Made by a program: the position numbers | In this document: piece after piece, positions 30,001-36,000 of the stretch | Layout: each line of letters begins with the position of its first letter | How positions within the stretch are numbered: position 1 is the stretch's first letter | Source of the DNA: Candidatus Moanibacter sp. | GTDB lineage: Bacteria; Verrucomicrobiota; Verrucomicrobiia; Opitutales; UBA2987 | DNA: 64,000 nt | Reading direction: 5' to 3' | NCBI GenBank assembly: GCA_965215885.1 | Contig: CBDCEW010000093.1 | Location: forward strand, 1 to 64,000

Positions 30001-33000
30001 ACAGAGCCTAGAATATCCAGGAGTTCGTTTTCATACCCGGTATCCTGATCAAAGTTGGCCCAACCGTCCCGGCCGTCTTCGGGAGGCCAACCCGTTGGGA
30101 TGGAAATGGGAACGCTGGATACGACAAATTTCCAGGTAGCATGCGACTTCTTGAGACTCTCCTTTAACCACTCTCGCTGAGGTTTTCCCAGCATCGTTTT
30201 CATTCTATCGGGATTATCGGTCCCACTCTTCGGATCCCGGTACTGCCGATTATCGAGAATAAAAACCTCAAGATGCCTTCCCCACCGAATCGTTCTGTGG
30301 AGCCGGTTAAGGAAATTCGGGATTTCTCGAACAGGATTGTAATCGAGAAAGGCCCGGCGACCGAGGGGCATCAAGTGCTGTTCCTTATTGTAGGGGGCAA
30401 CATCTCGCCGGTCTTCGTATGGCCCGAAGTCGTTGACCACTTCGTGGTCATCCCAAATAGCATAGTAGGGCATCCTCGCCAGAATCTTGCGGTATCCATC
30501 ATCCTCGCGATTGTACTTCCAGTGCGCCCAGAAGTCATTCATCGAAGCGGATTTTTCAAAATCTCCGGGCACCTGCCTGTTTCCAAACTTTCCAAGTGCT
30601 TCACATGTGCCGTCCGCGTATATCATGTCACCGAGACCGATAAAGAAATCCAGATCGAATCGCTCGATCGCTCCAAAGATAGGAAACCCCTCCTCGACAT
30701 CGCGACATACATTTTGCCCAGCCAGGTCCCCTCCCCAGGCAAACACGACGCTTTTTTCGGCGGCCGCCAGCGGGGCTGTGCGGAATTCCCCTTCCGCCGT
30801 CGGCCGCCCTCTGCGAGTGGCAGACTCCGTTTCGCTGAACCATACCTTGTAGGTGTAGCGTGTTTCCGCCTTCAGATCCACCACTTCGATTTTTCCCGTA
30901 AAGTCATGCTCGGCATCGACCGTCGCGGTTCGGTGAATCGCCCGATTGCTCCCCTCCCCAACCAGTAGCACGTTCATAACGGCTGCTCGATCCGTGCGCG
31001 ACCACAACACTGCGCTATTCTCTGATACATCGCCCACCGCTACCCCGTGCGTGGCGTGGATCTTTTCGCTCTCCGCTGCCGCAACTGTTCTTTCCCCAAT
31101 AAGCAATGCCACAAGAATGACACTAATTCTTAATCCGACGACCGGCATCTGATGCAATTTCCTCATTTCTCTGTTTCCTTCTGTTCAAACCTCTTCTCCA
31201 CGGACGGACCTCCCATCTAAAGATCTCGAATCAAATAATATAGGCCCCAGATATAGAGTAGGTAGACAAGTAGTATTATCAATGTTACAAAATGGTCCTT
31301 GAACGTTTTTCCAGCAAATTTATGGACACTTCGTGGATGTAAAAATCGCGCAAAGTAGATGAAATACATTATTCCGAGGAAAAGAACTTTCAGGAAGAGA
31401 ATCACCATGCGAACTATCCACTTTTCTGGATTGCTGGAATGTAGGCCGTTGCTCTCGAAGCGTAAGCGGAGACCCTCCCAAGCCTTGGCGAAGGAGGGCA
31501 CCATTCCAATCTTCCAATCTACCAGCCTGATACACCAATGAAAAGCAATTTTCGAATCACCAAGGCCTACAGGCACCTGCTCGACCTCATCGAGAAGGAA
31601 CAATGTGTTATCATGAATGGAGGGGTTGCCACCGAACTGGGACGCCTCGCACTCGATGGATACACCGTGGGTGACGATTCGCAATGGGGCACGTGGGCAT
31701 TATTCCATGCTCCGGATGCGGTATTTGAAGTCCACAAACGCTATGTAACCACCGGATGTGATCTGATTTCAACCGCCACCTGGGGCATTTTAAACACCCG
31801 CGAATTCGAATCCGGCAGTATCACGGGAAACTCCCAATTGAGCCACTGGTTTGATTGCGCTCGCCTGGGTGTGCGATTGGCCAGAAAGGCCGTGGCAGAG
31901 GAAGGCAGGGAAGCAGACTGCTCCGTCGCCTTTTGCGTCAGCGGCGAGGTAACGTCATCCGAGCAGCTCGAACGCTTCCGCCTCTTACCACGCGTTATCG
32001 CGGAAGACCCACCCGATCTTATCTTGATGGAAACGATATCTCTGTTCCGCGATCAATTGACCATTCCAGCCATCGAGGCGATGTTGGAAACTGGGGTTCC
32101 GGTATGGCTCAGTTTCCGTCGAAGTCTCGAGGGAGTCTGTGGGATCTATGGGCAACACTGGGGTGGCCCCGAAGGCGACCTCTTCGGTCGCGTCGCCGCA
32201 AGATTTGAATCTATGGGAATAGGCGCTCTCATGATCAACAGCATACCCATCAGGCACATTCGTGGGATGCTGCCCTGGCTACGGGATTTCACCGACTTGC
32301 CTCTGGGTGTATACCCGAACCTCGGCCATTACCTCGACCCCGGTTGGAAGTTCGACGATACAACGGGACCAGAGGAGTACGCCGACCTCGCGCTACAGTG
32401 GCGCGAAGAAGGCGCCCAGATCGTAGGCGGCTGCAACGGGGTTTCGCCCGAACACATCGCTGCCCTGAAGAGACGCGTGGCGAATACGAAACCGGGTCGA
32501 TGTAAAGACATCGCCTCCCTGGACCCATTGAAATCCATTTCGACACTGACGAATATCCCTGAGCTTTCCAGCGAACCTTCCCGCTGGCGCGACAAGAGAG
32601 ACCGATCCCTCTACCCTTTGGCTTTCCCAACCATAGAAGTGGATCCTAATGTATTTCGGCCCACCCAGGGAAGTTTCCTGATTTGGAAATTCCTCTTCCA
32701 GTCGGGCCTCGGGGAGGGGAAAGAATGTCTTGATGTCGGCTGTGGGACTGGAATCCTAACCGTGCAGCTGGCTCTAAACGGCGCCCGAAATGTCGATGCC
32801 ACCGATATCCAGGAGGAAGCCATTGCCAACACCATGGCAAACGCTTTTCGCAACGACGTTGCCGCACGCGTAACGGGAAAAGTAATCGATCTTTATACCC
32901 AGCTTCCGGACAAGAAATACGACATCATCGTGGCCAGCCTTTATCAACTGCCGGTAGATCCTATGAGTGAGCCATCGACCCATCGTCCAGCCGATTTTTG

Positions 33001-36000
33001 GGGCAGAAATATGGTTGATCACCTCGTTTCTCTGCTCCCAGACCTTCTCAAGAAGAGTGGTGTCGCCTACATCATGCAGGTTTCGGTTTTGAGTGAGAAG
33101 AGAACCACAAATCTTCTTAATGCAGTAGGATTTGACGCCTCTGTGATCGACTTCGGCCTCTTCCACTTTCCTCCTGAATTTCACGAAAATGTCGAGCAGA
33201 TCGAAACCGTTGAAGAAATCTCAGATGCTTACCATTTAAACTTCAGCGAAGACCGCGTCCTCGTCATGTATCTTCTAGAAGTCACTTGGAGCAAGTAATC
33301 AGAGAATTGAATAGTGACGCCGATGCTATCAAGGAGAGAAATGTTCACACAAATCGAATCGGATTGTAGCGGAAAGCGGAAGCTTTTCGTCTTCGTGGAC
33401 GGGTCTAGCCCGCTTTTCTTAAGCGGGTCGGCGTTACAAACTGCTGGCAGCCGCGATCCAGCCCAGACGCTTCTCTAGACTTCGTGCGAGAAAAGCGGGT
33501 TTAATCGATCATTCGAAACATCAACCTCAACGTATAACTCCGACCGTTGGGCGTCGGCCCGATCGAGACCGCATCCGTAAACGCTGCTCGCACGGAGGCG
33601 TCGAAAATAACGTTACCCGAGGGATCGATCAACTCGACAGAACCAATCTTACCGACTCCGTCGACACTAAACCGCACGTTCGCCTCCAATCGCCTTCCCG
33701 ACAAGCTTGCCGGTTTCATCCATGCTAGATTGATACTTTCTCGAAGCCGGTCGATATATAACCGAAGACCCAATTGCAAAGATTCGGATGCGGACTCTGC
33801 ACGGGTCTCATCTTCGCTTTCGGAAACGATACCCGCCATTTTGGCTATTAATCGATCGATATCAATTTCTTCAACTTCAACTTTCCGCTCTTTCGGGATT
33901 CTCGGATGCGCCGTCTTCGGTCTTCCGTGCATTTTTGCGAAATCCTCGTAGGAAATTCTCTTCACTGGTGGGGGCGGTTCCACAGGTTCGCTTTCAGGCT
34001 GCCGCCCTGAAGGGGACAGCTCGTCTCTCCCCTCCACCCTGTCTTCCACTCTTGGCACCGGAGCTGCAATTAGAGTAAAAACGTGCGGATCCCGCTCTCG
34101 TCTGAACGCTTCTACCAATGTACCCAGCAGCAACAGAAAGAAGAATCCTCCGTGAAGCAGAGCCGAAATTATGAAGGCGCGCTGCGAAGCGGTCTCTTTT
34201 CCATACCGCGCATCTGCATCATTTGCTCGCAAATTCACCCCATTGTTTCAAAAATTCGAGAAATGATGGAGTTCATTCAATTCGCGTGTCGAGGCTGATC
34301 CGGGAAAGTCCGCTCTGCTTCACAAGGTCAATCACGTTGATGACTCGCTGGTACGGAATACTCCGGTCAGCGCGTATATTGATCACCGGAAGATCCGGAG
34401 CCGTCGCCATACTTTCCAGATACTCCGCCAGCTTCTCTTCATCGACCGCCGTGTCGCCCCAGTAGATCTGCCCATCCACCGTGATCGAGATCGTCTGAAA
34501 TCTGTATTCTCCAGTTGTTTCCTGGACGCTCTGCGATTCCTCCGGCAATTCCAGCGCAATCGATTGCTCGAGAAGAGGCGCCGTGATCATGAATATGATG
34601 AGCAGTGCAAAGGCCAGATCGATCAGGGGGGTGACATTGATCTCCGACATCGCCCCCAGACTCTCTCTCCTATGAAATGTCCTCGCCATGCTTAAACGCT
34701 ACTCCACACTTTTCACTCCTTCTCTCTCATCTCCGTTCTCTTTCCTGCCCTGAGCCTCGTCGAAGGGGTTTCCTTCTGTAAAATCATCTTCTGTTCAACT
34801 CTCCAACTCTGAACCTTTTACACTGTTCACTGCTGAGCGCAGCGAAGTCCCGGCTTGCCGGGGATCACTCTCCACTTCTTACTTCCTCCCTTGCCTCCAG
34901 TTCAATTCGGTCTGCCAGCGCGCTCGCGAAATTCTCCAATTCCGTGATCATAATTTTCGTCTGAGTGAGGAGGAAATTATAACCGAAAACCGAAGGTATC
35001 GCTACGAGTAGACCGGCCACGGTGGTAAGTAGTGCCCCCGAAACCCCAGGGGCAAGCATCTGTATGCTCGCTGTGCTCTTCAGCGCAATGGAACCGAATG
35101 CATCCATAACTCCCCACACCGTACCCAGGAGGCCGAGAAACGGAGCTCCCGTCACAATCGATCCCAATAGCACCATCTTGCTTTCATACTGTATCGTCGC
35201 CTCCGCTACGCCCCGCTGCAAAGCGTTCTCCACATGACCTATCCGCGACGGTGTCGAAGACGCGCCACCACCGGATCGCCCATACGCCTCCAACGCCGAT
35301 CGCATGAGATCAGCGTACGGTCCAAGCCCCCAACTCCGCATAGTAGATCCGAATTCGAGGAGCGAACCCTCTGCTTTGATTCTCCTGTCTAAATGATGAT
35401 TCAGCTCCCTCAACCGCGCCAGGTCGATATACTTACCGATCATTACCGTCCAGGCCAGAAGACTAAATGCCACCAGGAACAACACGATGATCTTGCCCGC
35501 CAAATTTGACTGACTGAAATAGGTCATGACGTTAGCAAGGATTACTTGCTTCATTCCGAACTCTGTGATGCTTTCCCAGGCCATATCGAAGTCGACTCCC
35601 TCTCTCTTACATTATCGCGCTATAATCAAGGCACTATCCGGAAAATCATCCAGAAATAAAATTGTTGTCTGTCCTCTGTCTCCTTTCATATTATCCCGTT
35701 TCAGGGTAGGGATGGATTACAAAAGCAAAACTCTCGAGGAACTTGAGAAAAAAGGAAGCTCCGTAAGCTCGAAGAACGCGTTCGTGGGCTTTGACGGATT
35801 CGTCGACAAGATTGTCGCGGCGGTAGACAAACGTTCCGGGCAGGGTGAGAATTATACCCCCATTGATACGATTGACGATTTTGGAACACGTATTCTGGGG
35901 GCGTCAGGCAAGAGTACAGCCATTGAACTCTACCCGCGATTGGAAAAGCTTGGCGGGAACGGCCCCATCATGGCAAATGCGCTTCTAAGCGCCGGCCTCA

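Follow-up and report, generated by a model that had tools for sequence, protein, structure and literature searches.

The gene described here, from a 64,000-nucleotide stretch of Candidatus Moanibacter sp. DNA (the window), encodes a homocysteine methyltransferase (HMT) barrel fused to a class I SAM methyltransferase, and our main reading, to which we give a probability of about 0.45, is that the family works as a one-chain S-methylmethionine (SMM) cycle setting the SAM/methionine balance, of which the window copy keeps the methyltransferase alone, its barrel having become a pseudo-enzyme. In intact members, the C-terminal domain would methylate the sulfur of methionine with SAM, giving SMM and SAH, and the zinc barrel would transfer the SMM methyl to homocysteine, giving two methionines. 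The net turnover, SAM plus homocysteine to SAH plus methionine, could serve as a valve for the SAM/methionine balance in cells importing methyl groups from betaine-like compounds, and the SMM level may be a read-out of that balance. In the window copy and in five copies of a sister genus, the barrel appears to have lost its zinc chemistry and the methyltransferase to have been kept, so this protein would produce but not consume SMM, the zinc-less barrel probably being retained for binding or structure rather than for catalysis. Speaking for the cycle are the barrel's top PDB sequence match, the SMM:homocysteine methyltransferase MmuM, the likeness of motif IV, the MmtN overlay, the methionine-cycle neighbours, and the lack of a corrinoid-protein motif at all 120 loci surveyed; speaking against it are the closer proximity of the C-domain to HEMK2 than to MmtN by sequence and by Z, and the sox/mgd-like and FDH neighbours (13/45 groups), which a pure SMM cycle leaves unexplained.

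Table 1. Features of the fusion gene, in positions of the window.
Feature	Position	Strand	Residues	Remark
ORF, HMT barrel plus class I SAM methyltransferase fusion	31538..33298	+		586 aa
HMT (PF02574) barrel	31607..32479	+	24-314	zinc site missing here
N27 where the LDGG motif has Asp	31616..31618	+	27	D in 119/119 homologues
Fusion-specific loop	32117..32191	+	194-218	C201, H207, W208, E212, D214 in 214/214 rows; C196 is Ser here
S235 at first zinc cysteine position	32240..32242	+	235	aligned with the INC cysteine of MmuM
C299-N300 at GGCC cysteine pair	32432..32437	+	299-300	
Variable, low-confidence linker	32501..32578	+	322-347	
SAM methyltransferase domain, HemK2/N6AMT1 class	32585..33286	+	350-583	
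SAM-binding motif I DVGCGTG	32732..32752	+	399-405	intact
Motif IV ASLYQLPVDP	32933..32962	+	466-475	NPPY in HemK2, [AG]C[LI]PQ in MmtN/MMT at this place

The first-pass annotation had described a fusion of an HMT barrel with a HemK2-class methyltransferase, and profiles, PDB sequence matches and AlphaFold overlays all bear this out. PF02574 matches residues 24-314 at E 8.5e-32 (111.6 bits against a cut-off of 22), class I methyltransferase families match about residues 365-543, and the best PDB sequences are MmuM (E 1.4e-13), T. maritima MetH (3.5e-13) and N6AMT1 (6.4e-08). The barrel of the AlphaFold model overlays MetH with Z 30.2 (rmsd 3.0, 280 aligned residues) and the C-domain overlays N6AMT1 with Z 21.7 (rmsd 2.1, 190 aligned); the profile and Z scores of 28-30 against MetH, BHMT and MmuM place the barrel in the HMT superfamily. 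The gene does stand isolated in the window, as had been reported, with a divergent phoD-like gene on one side and a convergent tonB-like gene on the other; a promoter and terminator scan of 31100-33600 gave signal at chance level, and 0 of 72,556 plasmid records spanned 80% of P0003, an intact family member. That the family is very large is also confirmed (E<=1e-3 for 2492 of the 8000 candidates scored), its best 120 homologues, aligned over 97-100% of the length, comprising one at 97% identity and 119 at 57-64%, and no description of the fusion was found in the titles and abstract openings searched, most subscription papers lying outside reach.

Judging by sequence and model, the C-domain is nearest in fold to HEMK2/N6AMT1, while its motif IV resembles that of the methionine S-methyltransferases MmtN and MMT; the earlier label "HemK2-like" holds for the fold and fails for the active-site motif. 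Against HEMK2/N6AMT1 the domain gives E 1.9e-09, Z 20-21.7 and 25% identity, higher than MmtN by sequence and by Z, and the HemK2-type class I fold itself is matched at Z 21.0 (rmsd 2.2, 182 aligned). SLYQMP does replace NPPY in most of the family, the window copy having SLYQLP, and the family motif IV reads [AG]-[SCN]-L-x-Q-x-P (S467 in 211/214, L468 and Q470 each in 213/214, and P472 in 214/214 rows). MmtN/MMT sequences carry [AG]-C-[LI]-P-Q, often followed by V-P in Group II (PMC9135737 supplement); comparison by eye puts a Tyr of the family at the position of that Pro, the exact MmtN/MMT form being seen only in paralogues (ACLPQIP and ACLPQVP). The GxGxG motif of MmtN/MMT is retained, and MmtN overlays 200-205 of the 232 C-domain residues at 2.9-3.0 Å with Z 16.8-17.1; of the 50 listed rows, none aligns more residues at <=3.0 Å. 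In this overlay the C-domain is 14% identical to the MmtN of R. indicus, against about 30% between MmtN/MMT groups, and two profile searches of PDB do not place MmtN among their 60 best matches, a result with which kinship is still compatible. The conserved MmtN blocks AHYY, GLxLNEALL, NxxGRxG and QHxxTS were not seen in the family by eye, and, as regards the methionine-binding E127, R132 and E250 and the trimer-pocket residues P169 and R183 of MmtN, D474-P475 may match E127-P128 with one inserted residue, while R132 has no residue in register. A pattern for the MmtN motif matched in 0 of 401 genomes, and further searches for natural MmtN gave only four unrelated viral matches, no match in another, and none among the best 120 of the last. 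All 72 C-domain positions conserved at >=95% are retained in the window copy, and at the 90% threshold (119 rows) it deviates at five, M471L, I515V, Q520E, F541L and R557T.

Active enzymes of the HMT superfamily carry three zinc cysteines, in NC and GGCC motifs. At these places the window copy has S235, C299 and N300, and the reported losses C235S and C300N stand, with Cys at each site in 118/119 homologues; D27N and C196S also deviate from 119/119. In all, 7 of 94 conserved barrel positions are lost, D27, C196, C235 and C300 among them. All three cysteines are present in 206/214 alignment rows and in 120/120 further homologues, that is, in 326 sequences outside the zinc-less lineage. The barrel scores 94.5 bits against the MmuM NCBIfam equivalog cut-off of 215, and its methyl donor is not fixed by likeness, since it is about equally near MetH and MmuM (Z 30.2 against 28.1, and the E-values given above).

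What had appeared as a loss private to this copy is real and marks a lineage of six genomes in one family, five of them in a sister genus in which the gene with the same zinc-site loss is retained under purifying selection (dN/dS 0.07-0.20 in the barrel and 0.03-0.13 in the C-domain over 10 pairs); for the window copy's own branch, dS against the sister genus is mostly saturated and so yields no dN/dS. In full-length trees the window copy and the sister genus group together (FastTree 98 on 214 rows; IQ-TREE 98/98 on 31 rows, without a mixture model), and the C-domain tree (37 rows), with both branches long, does not resolve the two. The same residues had been noted in an independent record, and indeed all six members of the 90% cluster share the substitutions; since the contigs of run X2 (one other letter over 31300-33389) and run X3 (none over 31300-32444) agree as well, the substitutions are not assembly errors. 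Very probably the barrel of the window copy is dead and its methyltransferase alive; the retention of the gene after the loss of the barrel site shows that the two catalytic steps are not obligately coupled, which counts against the SMM-cycle reading.

For the gene neighbours, we surveyed 120 loci in 45 lineage groups at 78% identity, with flanks of up to 8 kb, many of them shorter. Methionine-cycle genes (metK, ahcY, adenosine kinase, MetE-like barrels, and stand-alone HMT or BHMT-like genes) flank 53/120 loci (20/45 groups), with metK directly downstream on the same strand in eight loci and the order metK-adoK-ahcY-fusion in one. The first-pass annotation had placed the family beside N-methylglutamate synthase, sarcosine oxidase or formate dehydrogenase genes, and of this the sox-like and FDH part is retained: N-methyl and C1 oxidation genes (sox/mgd-like, FDH and related) occur in 13/45 groups, fewer than the methionine-cycle genes, which are the commonest. 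The mgsC-like neighbours did not reappear at any of the 120 loci, in a search with a glutamate-synthase motif that matches once in genome G000. Rfam applied to 13 loci gave no SAM riboswitch, only two tRNAs and one c-di-GMP-I riboswitch, and our MetF, FolD and GlnA patterns match nothing even in G000, so that their blanks in the loci carry no weight. LuxR-type genes flank 22/120 loci (10/45 groups), in metagenome loci only (0/40 genome loci), and often lie beside stand-alone barrels or tandem paralogues with degenerate methyltransferase motifs. A bolder extension of the SMM cycle, which we consider doubtful, would make the family a widespread writer-eraser for SMM: from the SMM level, adjacent LuxR-type regulators of metK-ahcY would read the SAM/homocysteine ratio. 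The writer-eraser would have been split both ways, with a dead barrel and live methyltransferase here and a live barrel and degenerate methyltransferase in the tandem paralogues; the eraser-less form would add to MmtN and BurB a third family of methionine S-methyltransferases of bacteria, so far unrecognised, and would possibly be a hidden source of SMM and of DMS/DMSP precursors.

The same neighbours allow a different reading, which we regard as unlikely, namely a methyl-disposal shunt like that of mammalian GNMT, in which methyls would reach methionine via the barrel or an adjacent BHMT, the C-domain would transfer them from SAM onto glycine, glutamate or a similar amine, sarcosine-oxidase-type enzymes would turn them into methylene-THF and formate, and homocysteine would be regenerated. 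It would account for Sox/Mgd/DMGDH-like neighbours at 31/120 loci (12/45 groups), FDH at 19 loci (3 groups), the BHMT-like gene immediately upstream in loci L109, L112, L122 and L123, the soxB/D/A-like and FDH genes of G000, and the gentamicin, apramycin and aeronamide N-methyltransferases among the PDB matches of the C-domain, the matched HemK-class folds also covering N-methyltransferases of small molecules and peptides. Among 151 genomes sampled from the phylum of G352, where kin are not independent, PF17806 is found in 23/23 carriers against 54/128 non-carriers, but within the window's own family it is found in 2/6 carriers and in 3/3 non-carriers (completeness 81-99%). The absent mgsC-like gene and the S-methyltransferase-like motif IV also argue against such a shunt, and MmtN itself does not methylate glycine (PMC9135737).

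Slightly less likely still is that the protein methylates the sulfur or selenium of another acceptor (a thioether, thiol or selenium compound), with the barrel and its conserved loop as part of the acceptor site or as a control domain sensing homocysteine or methionine. The invariant loop 194-218 persists in the zinc-less lineage and is confined to fused forms, its motif not being found in three stand-alone barrel paralogues; this loop (pLDDT <50 at 196-209) and the conserved loop 477-488 of the C-domain are modelled with low confidence, as expected of parts that become ordered upon binding, and the zinc-less barrel is still under purifying selection. Against this acceptor reading, the neighbours scanned show no recurring thiol, selenium or DMS genes (a single lineage has an ars-like cluster), and the three zinc cysteines of the 326 sequences outside the lineage are as expected of a catalytic site.

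The nearest fold, HEMK2/N6AMT1, and the LuxR-type neighbours would also suit a regulatory protein methyltransferase of the HemK2 type that acts with the adjacent regulators, its mark being sensed or erased by the barrel. We find this improbable, given that mutation of E27/D28 in N6AMT1 abolishes eRF1 methylation (PMC6796863) and that the window copy has Q377/G378 at this place and SLYQ instead of NPPY, with the LuxR link seen in metagenome loci only.

Distinctly improbable, in turn, is that the window copy is a decaying gene, dead in both halves, in a genome with many insertion elements. Its branch is long (about 0.5 changes per column), the 37 differences listed against one strain contig include 17 non-synonymous and 18 synonymous codons (21 further rows lie outside this count), the invariant loop is altered in two cluster members, the G005 copy has a stop near its end, and the metH of G000 has an in-frame stop. 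Nevertheless, the reading frame is open in all six cluster members, all 72 conserved C-domain positions were kept despite the long branch, and of the differences to P0002, 12 lie in the barrel and three in the C-domain. Direct SAM:homocysteine transfer between the domains, or a piece of a split MetH with a corrinoid protein feeding the barrel and the C-domain as reactivase, is highly improbable: the MetH-like barrel, one MttB neighbour and a C-domain match to the corrinoid-associated CpaM model, weak and below its cut-off, stand against a corrinoid motif found in 0/120 loci, in the flanks covered, by a pattern that matches two such genes in G000, and against the point that one shared reaction would not keep the C-domain under selection after zinc-site loss.

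The SMM cycle is known from plants, as MMT plus HMT. Group II mmtN genes of CPR bacteria and DPANN archaea adjoin HMT genes, and an SMM cycle has been proposed for them (Peng et al. 2022, PMC9135737); like the fusion, both systems pair an HMT barrel with a SAM methyltransferase whose motif IV, compared by eye, has the form [AG]-[CS]-[LI]-x-Q. The fusion differs in being a single chain with the barrel first, in its low identity to MmtN and its lack of the other MmtN blocks by eye and, compared with plant MMT, in having no aminotransferase-like tail; methionine S-methylation is what we infer for it. If this is right, the SMM cycle would be common as a single polypeptide in uncultured Actinomycetota, Latescibacterota, Chloroflexota and others, beyond plants and the few proposed CPR/DPANN clusters, and surveys counting mmtN would overlook a family of methionine S-methyltransferases; if it is wrong, the family still counts thousands of sequences that lie in methyl-cycle operons. 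The natural half-dead forms, barrel-dead here and methyltransferase-degenerate elsewhere, are ready controls for separating the two activities.

With E. coli MmuM, BHMT and the homocysteine-binding domain of MetH, intact members share the barrel and its LDGG, ET, NC, YPN and GGCC motifs. The differences are scores below every NCBIfam cut-off, the extra invariant loop and the attached methyltransferase, the window copy also lacking D27, C235 and C300. HemK2/N6AMT1/Mtq2 (TIGR00537, PRK14968) offers the nearest fold and the nearest PDB sequence to the C-domain, which differs in having no NPPY, E27/D28 replaced, extra helices ahead of the last strand and the barrel attached, and scores below both family cut-offs (54.6 against 87 and 83.2 against 162). 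The YitJ-type HMT-MetF fusion (PRK08645) likewise joins an HMT barrel to a second methyl-cycle enzyme, in its case a folate reductase and here a SAM methyltransferase, and its model scores 68 bits, with the cut-off at 453.

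The gene in the window joins a homocysteine S-methyltransferase (HMT) barrel to a HemK2-like methyltransferase, as the first-pass annotation had proposed, and Pfam, PDB sequence matches and AlphaFold overlays agree on this. Pfam places a PF02574-type HMT domain at residues 24-314 and class I methyltransferase families beyond residue 378, the PDB matches are MmuM, MetH and N6AMT1, and the best NCBIfam models are MmuM, PRK14968 and HemK2, every score lying below its cut-off. The AlphaFold model, built from 121 sequences (mean pLDDT 80.5, pTM 0.59), has two domains and a low-confidence linker at 322-347; its barrel overlays MetH (Z 30.2, rmsd 3.0, 280 aligned) and its C-domain N6AMT1 (Z 21.7, rmsd 2.1, 190 aligned). 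Loop 194-218 is almost invariant in the fused forms (C201, H207, W208, E212 and D214 in 214/214 rows), its motif is absent from the three printed stand-alone barrels, and it may be a domain interface. The family is indeed large and conserved: 2492 of 8000 scored candidates reach E 1e-3 or better, and 119 of the best 120 homologues share 57-64% identity over almost the full length. Named carriers belong to Latescibacterota, Chloroflexota, Lentisphaerota, Phycisphaerae, Pseudomonadota, Poribacteria, Gemmatimonadota and Actinomycetota, with a patchy distribution (23/151 genomes in the phylum of genome G352, 3/251 in that of G351); the window's family has the fusion in 6/9 genomes, and 0/300 other genomes sampled from its phylum have it. 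Each domain is already known, and so is their pairing in the form of separate genes. That the fusion itself lacks a published description held up: none was found in the literature searched, and databases give its homologues domain names only. What is new is a link to the methionine S-methyltransferases (MmtN/MMT) by motif and overlay, a zinc-less lineage under selection, and reciprocal half-degenerate paralogues.

The description of the C-domain as HemK2-like stands for the fold but not for the active site. Its isolated model (pLDDT 91.5) is closest to HEMK2/N6AMT1 (Z 20-21, 25% identity), whose NPPY motif is, however, absent. Motif IV reads [AG]-[SCN]-L-x-Q-x-P in the family (Q in 213/214 rows, final P in 214/214) and resembles the [AG]-C-[LI]-P-Q of MmtN and plant MMT, often followed by V-P in Group II, as taken from sequences that accompany PMC9135737; paralogues of the fusion carry ACLPQIP and ACLPQVP there. 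MmtN overlays 200-205 of the 232 C-domain residues at 2.9-3.0 A (Z 16.8-17.1), the longest match among the listed chains at this rmsd. Membership of MmtN is nevertheless rejected, because the R. indicus enzyme is only 14% identical, MmtN does not appear among the 60 best matches in either of two profile searches with the C-domain, and inspection by eye shows none of the other conserved MmtN blocks in the fusion family. The C-domain may still work like MmtN.

For intact members, with all three barrel zinc cysteines, our tentative reading, at a probability of about 0.45, is an S-methylmethionine (SMM) cycle on one chain, with substrates that we infer. The C-domain would convert SAM and Met to SMM and SAH, the barrel would convert SMM and Hcy to two Met, and the net role would be a valve on SAM. 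We prefer it as the simplest account in which the two active sites, motif IV and the neighbouring genes all have a place. Peng et al. demonstrated activity for Group II MmtN enzymes, located them next to HMT genes and put forward an SMM cycle (PMC9135737), whose two reactions are given in PMC6284425. Barrels of the HMT type accept SMM, betaine or DMSP as methyl donors (PMC12366255).

The neighbours come from 120 loci, of which 14 lie in named genomes, 80 on metagenome contigs and 26 in regions of other genomes; after clustering of the genes, the scan took in the cluster representatives and the flanking singletons. Methionine-cycle genes occur at 53 loci: stand-alone HMT/BHMT-like at 27, MetK at 11, MetE-like at 8 plus 3, a stand-alone barrel at 6, adenosine-kinase-like at 2 and AhcY at 1. 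In 8 loci metK lies directly behind the fusion, and locus L094 has the order metK, adoK, ahcY, fusion. One lineage supplies 16 of the 120 loci; among 45 groups at 78% identity, methionine-cycle genes occur in 20, N-methyl/C1 oxidation genes in 13, either kind in 25, and LuxR-type genes in 10.

A GNMT-like methyl shunt feeding sarcosine-oxidase-type oxidation is unlikely, though the best placed of the alternatives. The neighbours once reported for the family are confirmed in part: N-methyl/C1 oxidation genes stand at 37/120 loci (Sox/Mgd/DMGDH-like 31, FDH 19), but the mgsC-like genes are not, the glutamate-synthase motif occurring in 0/120. Some flanking flavoproteins we take to be Mgd; NCBIfam gives them no closer label than soxB/soxA-like, with scores under the cut-off. 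Sarcosine-oxidase alpha is found in 23/23 carriers vs 54/128 non-carriers in one phylum sample, and in 2/6 carriers vs 3/3 non-carriers of the window's family. In SAR11 the first betaine methyl goes to methionine via BHMT, according to PMC3160333; this would be the setting that calls for SAM control or disposal.

Also unlikely is methylation of another sulphur or selenium acceptor, with the barrel used for binding. Still less probable is a regulatory protein methyltransferase, with LuxR-type genes at 22/120 loci and the HEMK2 fold on its side, and against it the acidic N6AMT1 residues required for eRF1 methylation (PMC6796863), which align to Q377 and G378 of the window's copy.

The reported losses C235S and C300N are real: each Cys is kept in 118/119 homologues, and the same changes are found in every one of the 6 members of the 90% cluster and in contigs of two other runs. 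D27 is N and C196 is S where 119/119 homologues have D and C. In the alignment C235 and the two GGCC cysteines fall on cysteines of MmuM; these bind zinc, in a site served by the DGG aspartate. Over positions conserved at 95% or more among 206 intact rows, the copy departs at 7/94 in the barrel and 0/72 in the C-domain; with 119 rows and the threshold set at 90%, 5 C-domain positions depart. The loss is thus aimed at the chemistry of the barrel. Under the one-chain SMM cycle, step 1 alone would remain here, the barrel being a pseudo-enzyme.

The sister genus, five genomes of the same family, has the fusion in 5/5; position 235 is G there, position 300 is Y or L, and position 299 is G in most. 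Together with the window's copy it makes up all cysteine-less rows among 214 (8 rows, 7 distinct), and 120/120 further homologues keep the cysteines. With trait columns dropped beforehand, these rows form one clade (FastTree support 98, IQ-TREE 98/98), nested among Latescibacterota- and Poribacteria-type sequences, and one acquisition with one loss is likely on these trees. Two separate losses are less likely, although a C-domain-only tree leaves the grouping unsettled. Across ten sister-genus pairs the barrel has a dN/dS of 0.07-0.20 and the C-domain one of 0.03-0.13, and the ratio of barrel to C-domain change is 1.25-2.40, vs 0.20-1.52 in 15 control pairs. The gene is kept, its barrel being relaxed yet still under constraint. 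On the branch of the window's copy dS has mostly reached saturation, and strains differ at 17 non-synonymous vs 18 synonymous codons among 37 listed; selection on this branch may therefore be weaker. That this copy is simply decaying, which that ratio would fit and the unbroken C-domain positions would not, we consider very unlikely. Direct transfer between the domains, or a split-MetH piece, is the least probable account; no corrinoid motif was found in the 120 loci.

The gene is solitary, as first noted, between divergent phoD-like and convergent tonB-like genes; no methyl-cycle gene is among its neighbours, nor at any of the 5 sister-genus loci. In the window's assembly, G000, all three PF02574 matches are damaged and three MetE-like barrels are present. 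As the assembly has no other intact HMT-type gene, only metH with an in-frame stop and one HMT fragment, any SMM would, speculatively, build up, pass out of the cell or undergo cleavage. A 210-base query across the repeat beside the fusion accounts for most of 160 blastn lines genome-wide.

Coordinates of the fusion gene, surrounding features and related genes
Feature	Location	Strand	Remark
Fusion ORF, 586 residues	window 31538-33298	+	open frame
metH, in-frame TGA within homocysteine barrel	G000, contig C102, 69588-70514	+	maybe assembly error
Fragment of another HMT gene	G000, contig C96, 39190-39408		
Interspersed repeat, ~50 bases, inverted copies	window 33347-33400		read depth peak
Transposase gene	window 19728-21953		
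Transposase, DruA-like N-terminal domain fused to DDE_Tnp_1	window 22538-23920		
Transposase gene	window 40599-42269		
Thymidylate-kinase-like gene	window 36855-37607	opposite to 39160-39870	by eye
Thymidylate-kinase-like gene	window 39160-39870	opposite to 36855-37607	PF02223 match
Stand-alone barrel paralogue	locus L058, 1899-2888		directly behind fusion; ~40% identity, all three zinc cysteines
Stand-alone barrel paralogue	locus L059, 9791-10675		directly behind fusion; ~40% identity, all three zinc cysteines
Stand-alone barrel paralogue	locus L061, 5222-6214		directly behind fusion; ~40% identity, all three zinc cysteines

The mirror case is found in tandem paralogues at L051 and L083, where 9 and 12 conserved positions are gone from the C-domain and 1-2 from the barrel; at 6 loci a stand-alone barrel comes behind the fusion. 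Tandem fusion pairs occur at L051, L068, L069, L072, L073, L074, L083 and L088; in most of them a LuxR-type gene separates the two copies or comes after them, and one copy often has an intact barrel and a degenerate motif (CLQQEP, CLPQIP, SLAQQP, SLPEPP). Internal stops or split frames were seen in homologues of G005 (L116, near residue 573) and L007 (at 294), and the G707 homologue has one TGA and that of G702 is in two pieces. One Latescibacterota-type lineage (L008, L044, L129-L142) has a conserved operon of FDH subunits, fdhD, fusion, two SDRs, dimethylformamidase-like, BHMT-like, TPP enzyme and soxB-like flavoprotein genes; an ars-like cluster immediately upstream of the fusion, on which a MetE-like gene converges, is confined to one lineage (L001, L002, L037, L039). 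Two stand-alone HemK2-like proteins, P0237 and P0271, carry SLPQMP and NLPQGP at motif IV and are possibly a bridge between HemK2 and MmtN/MMT.
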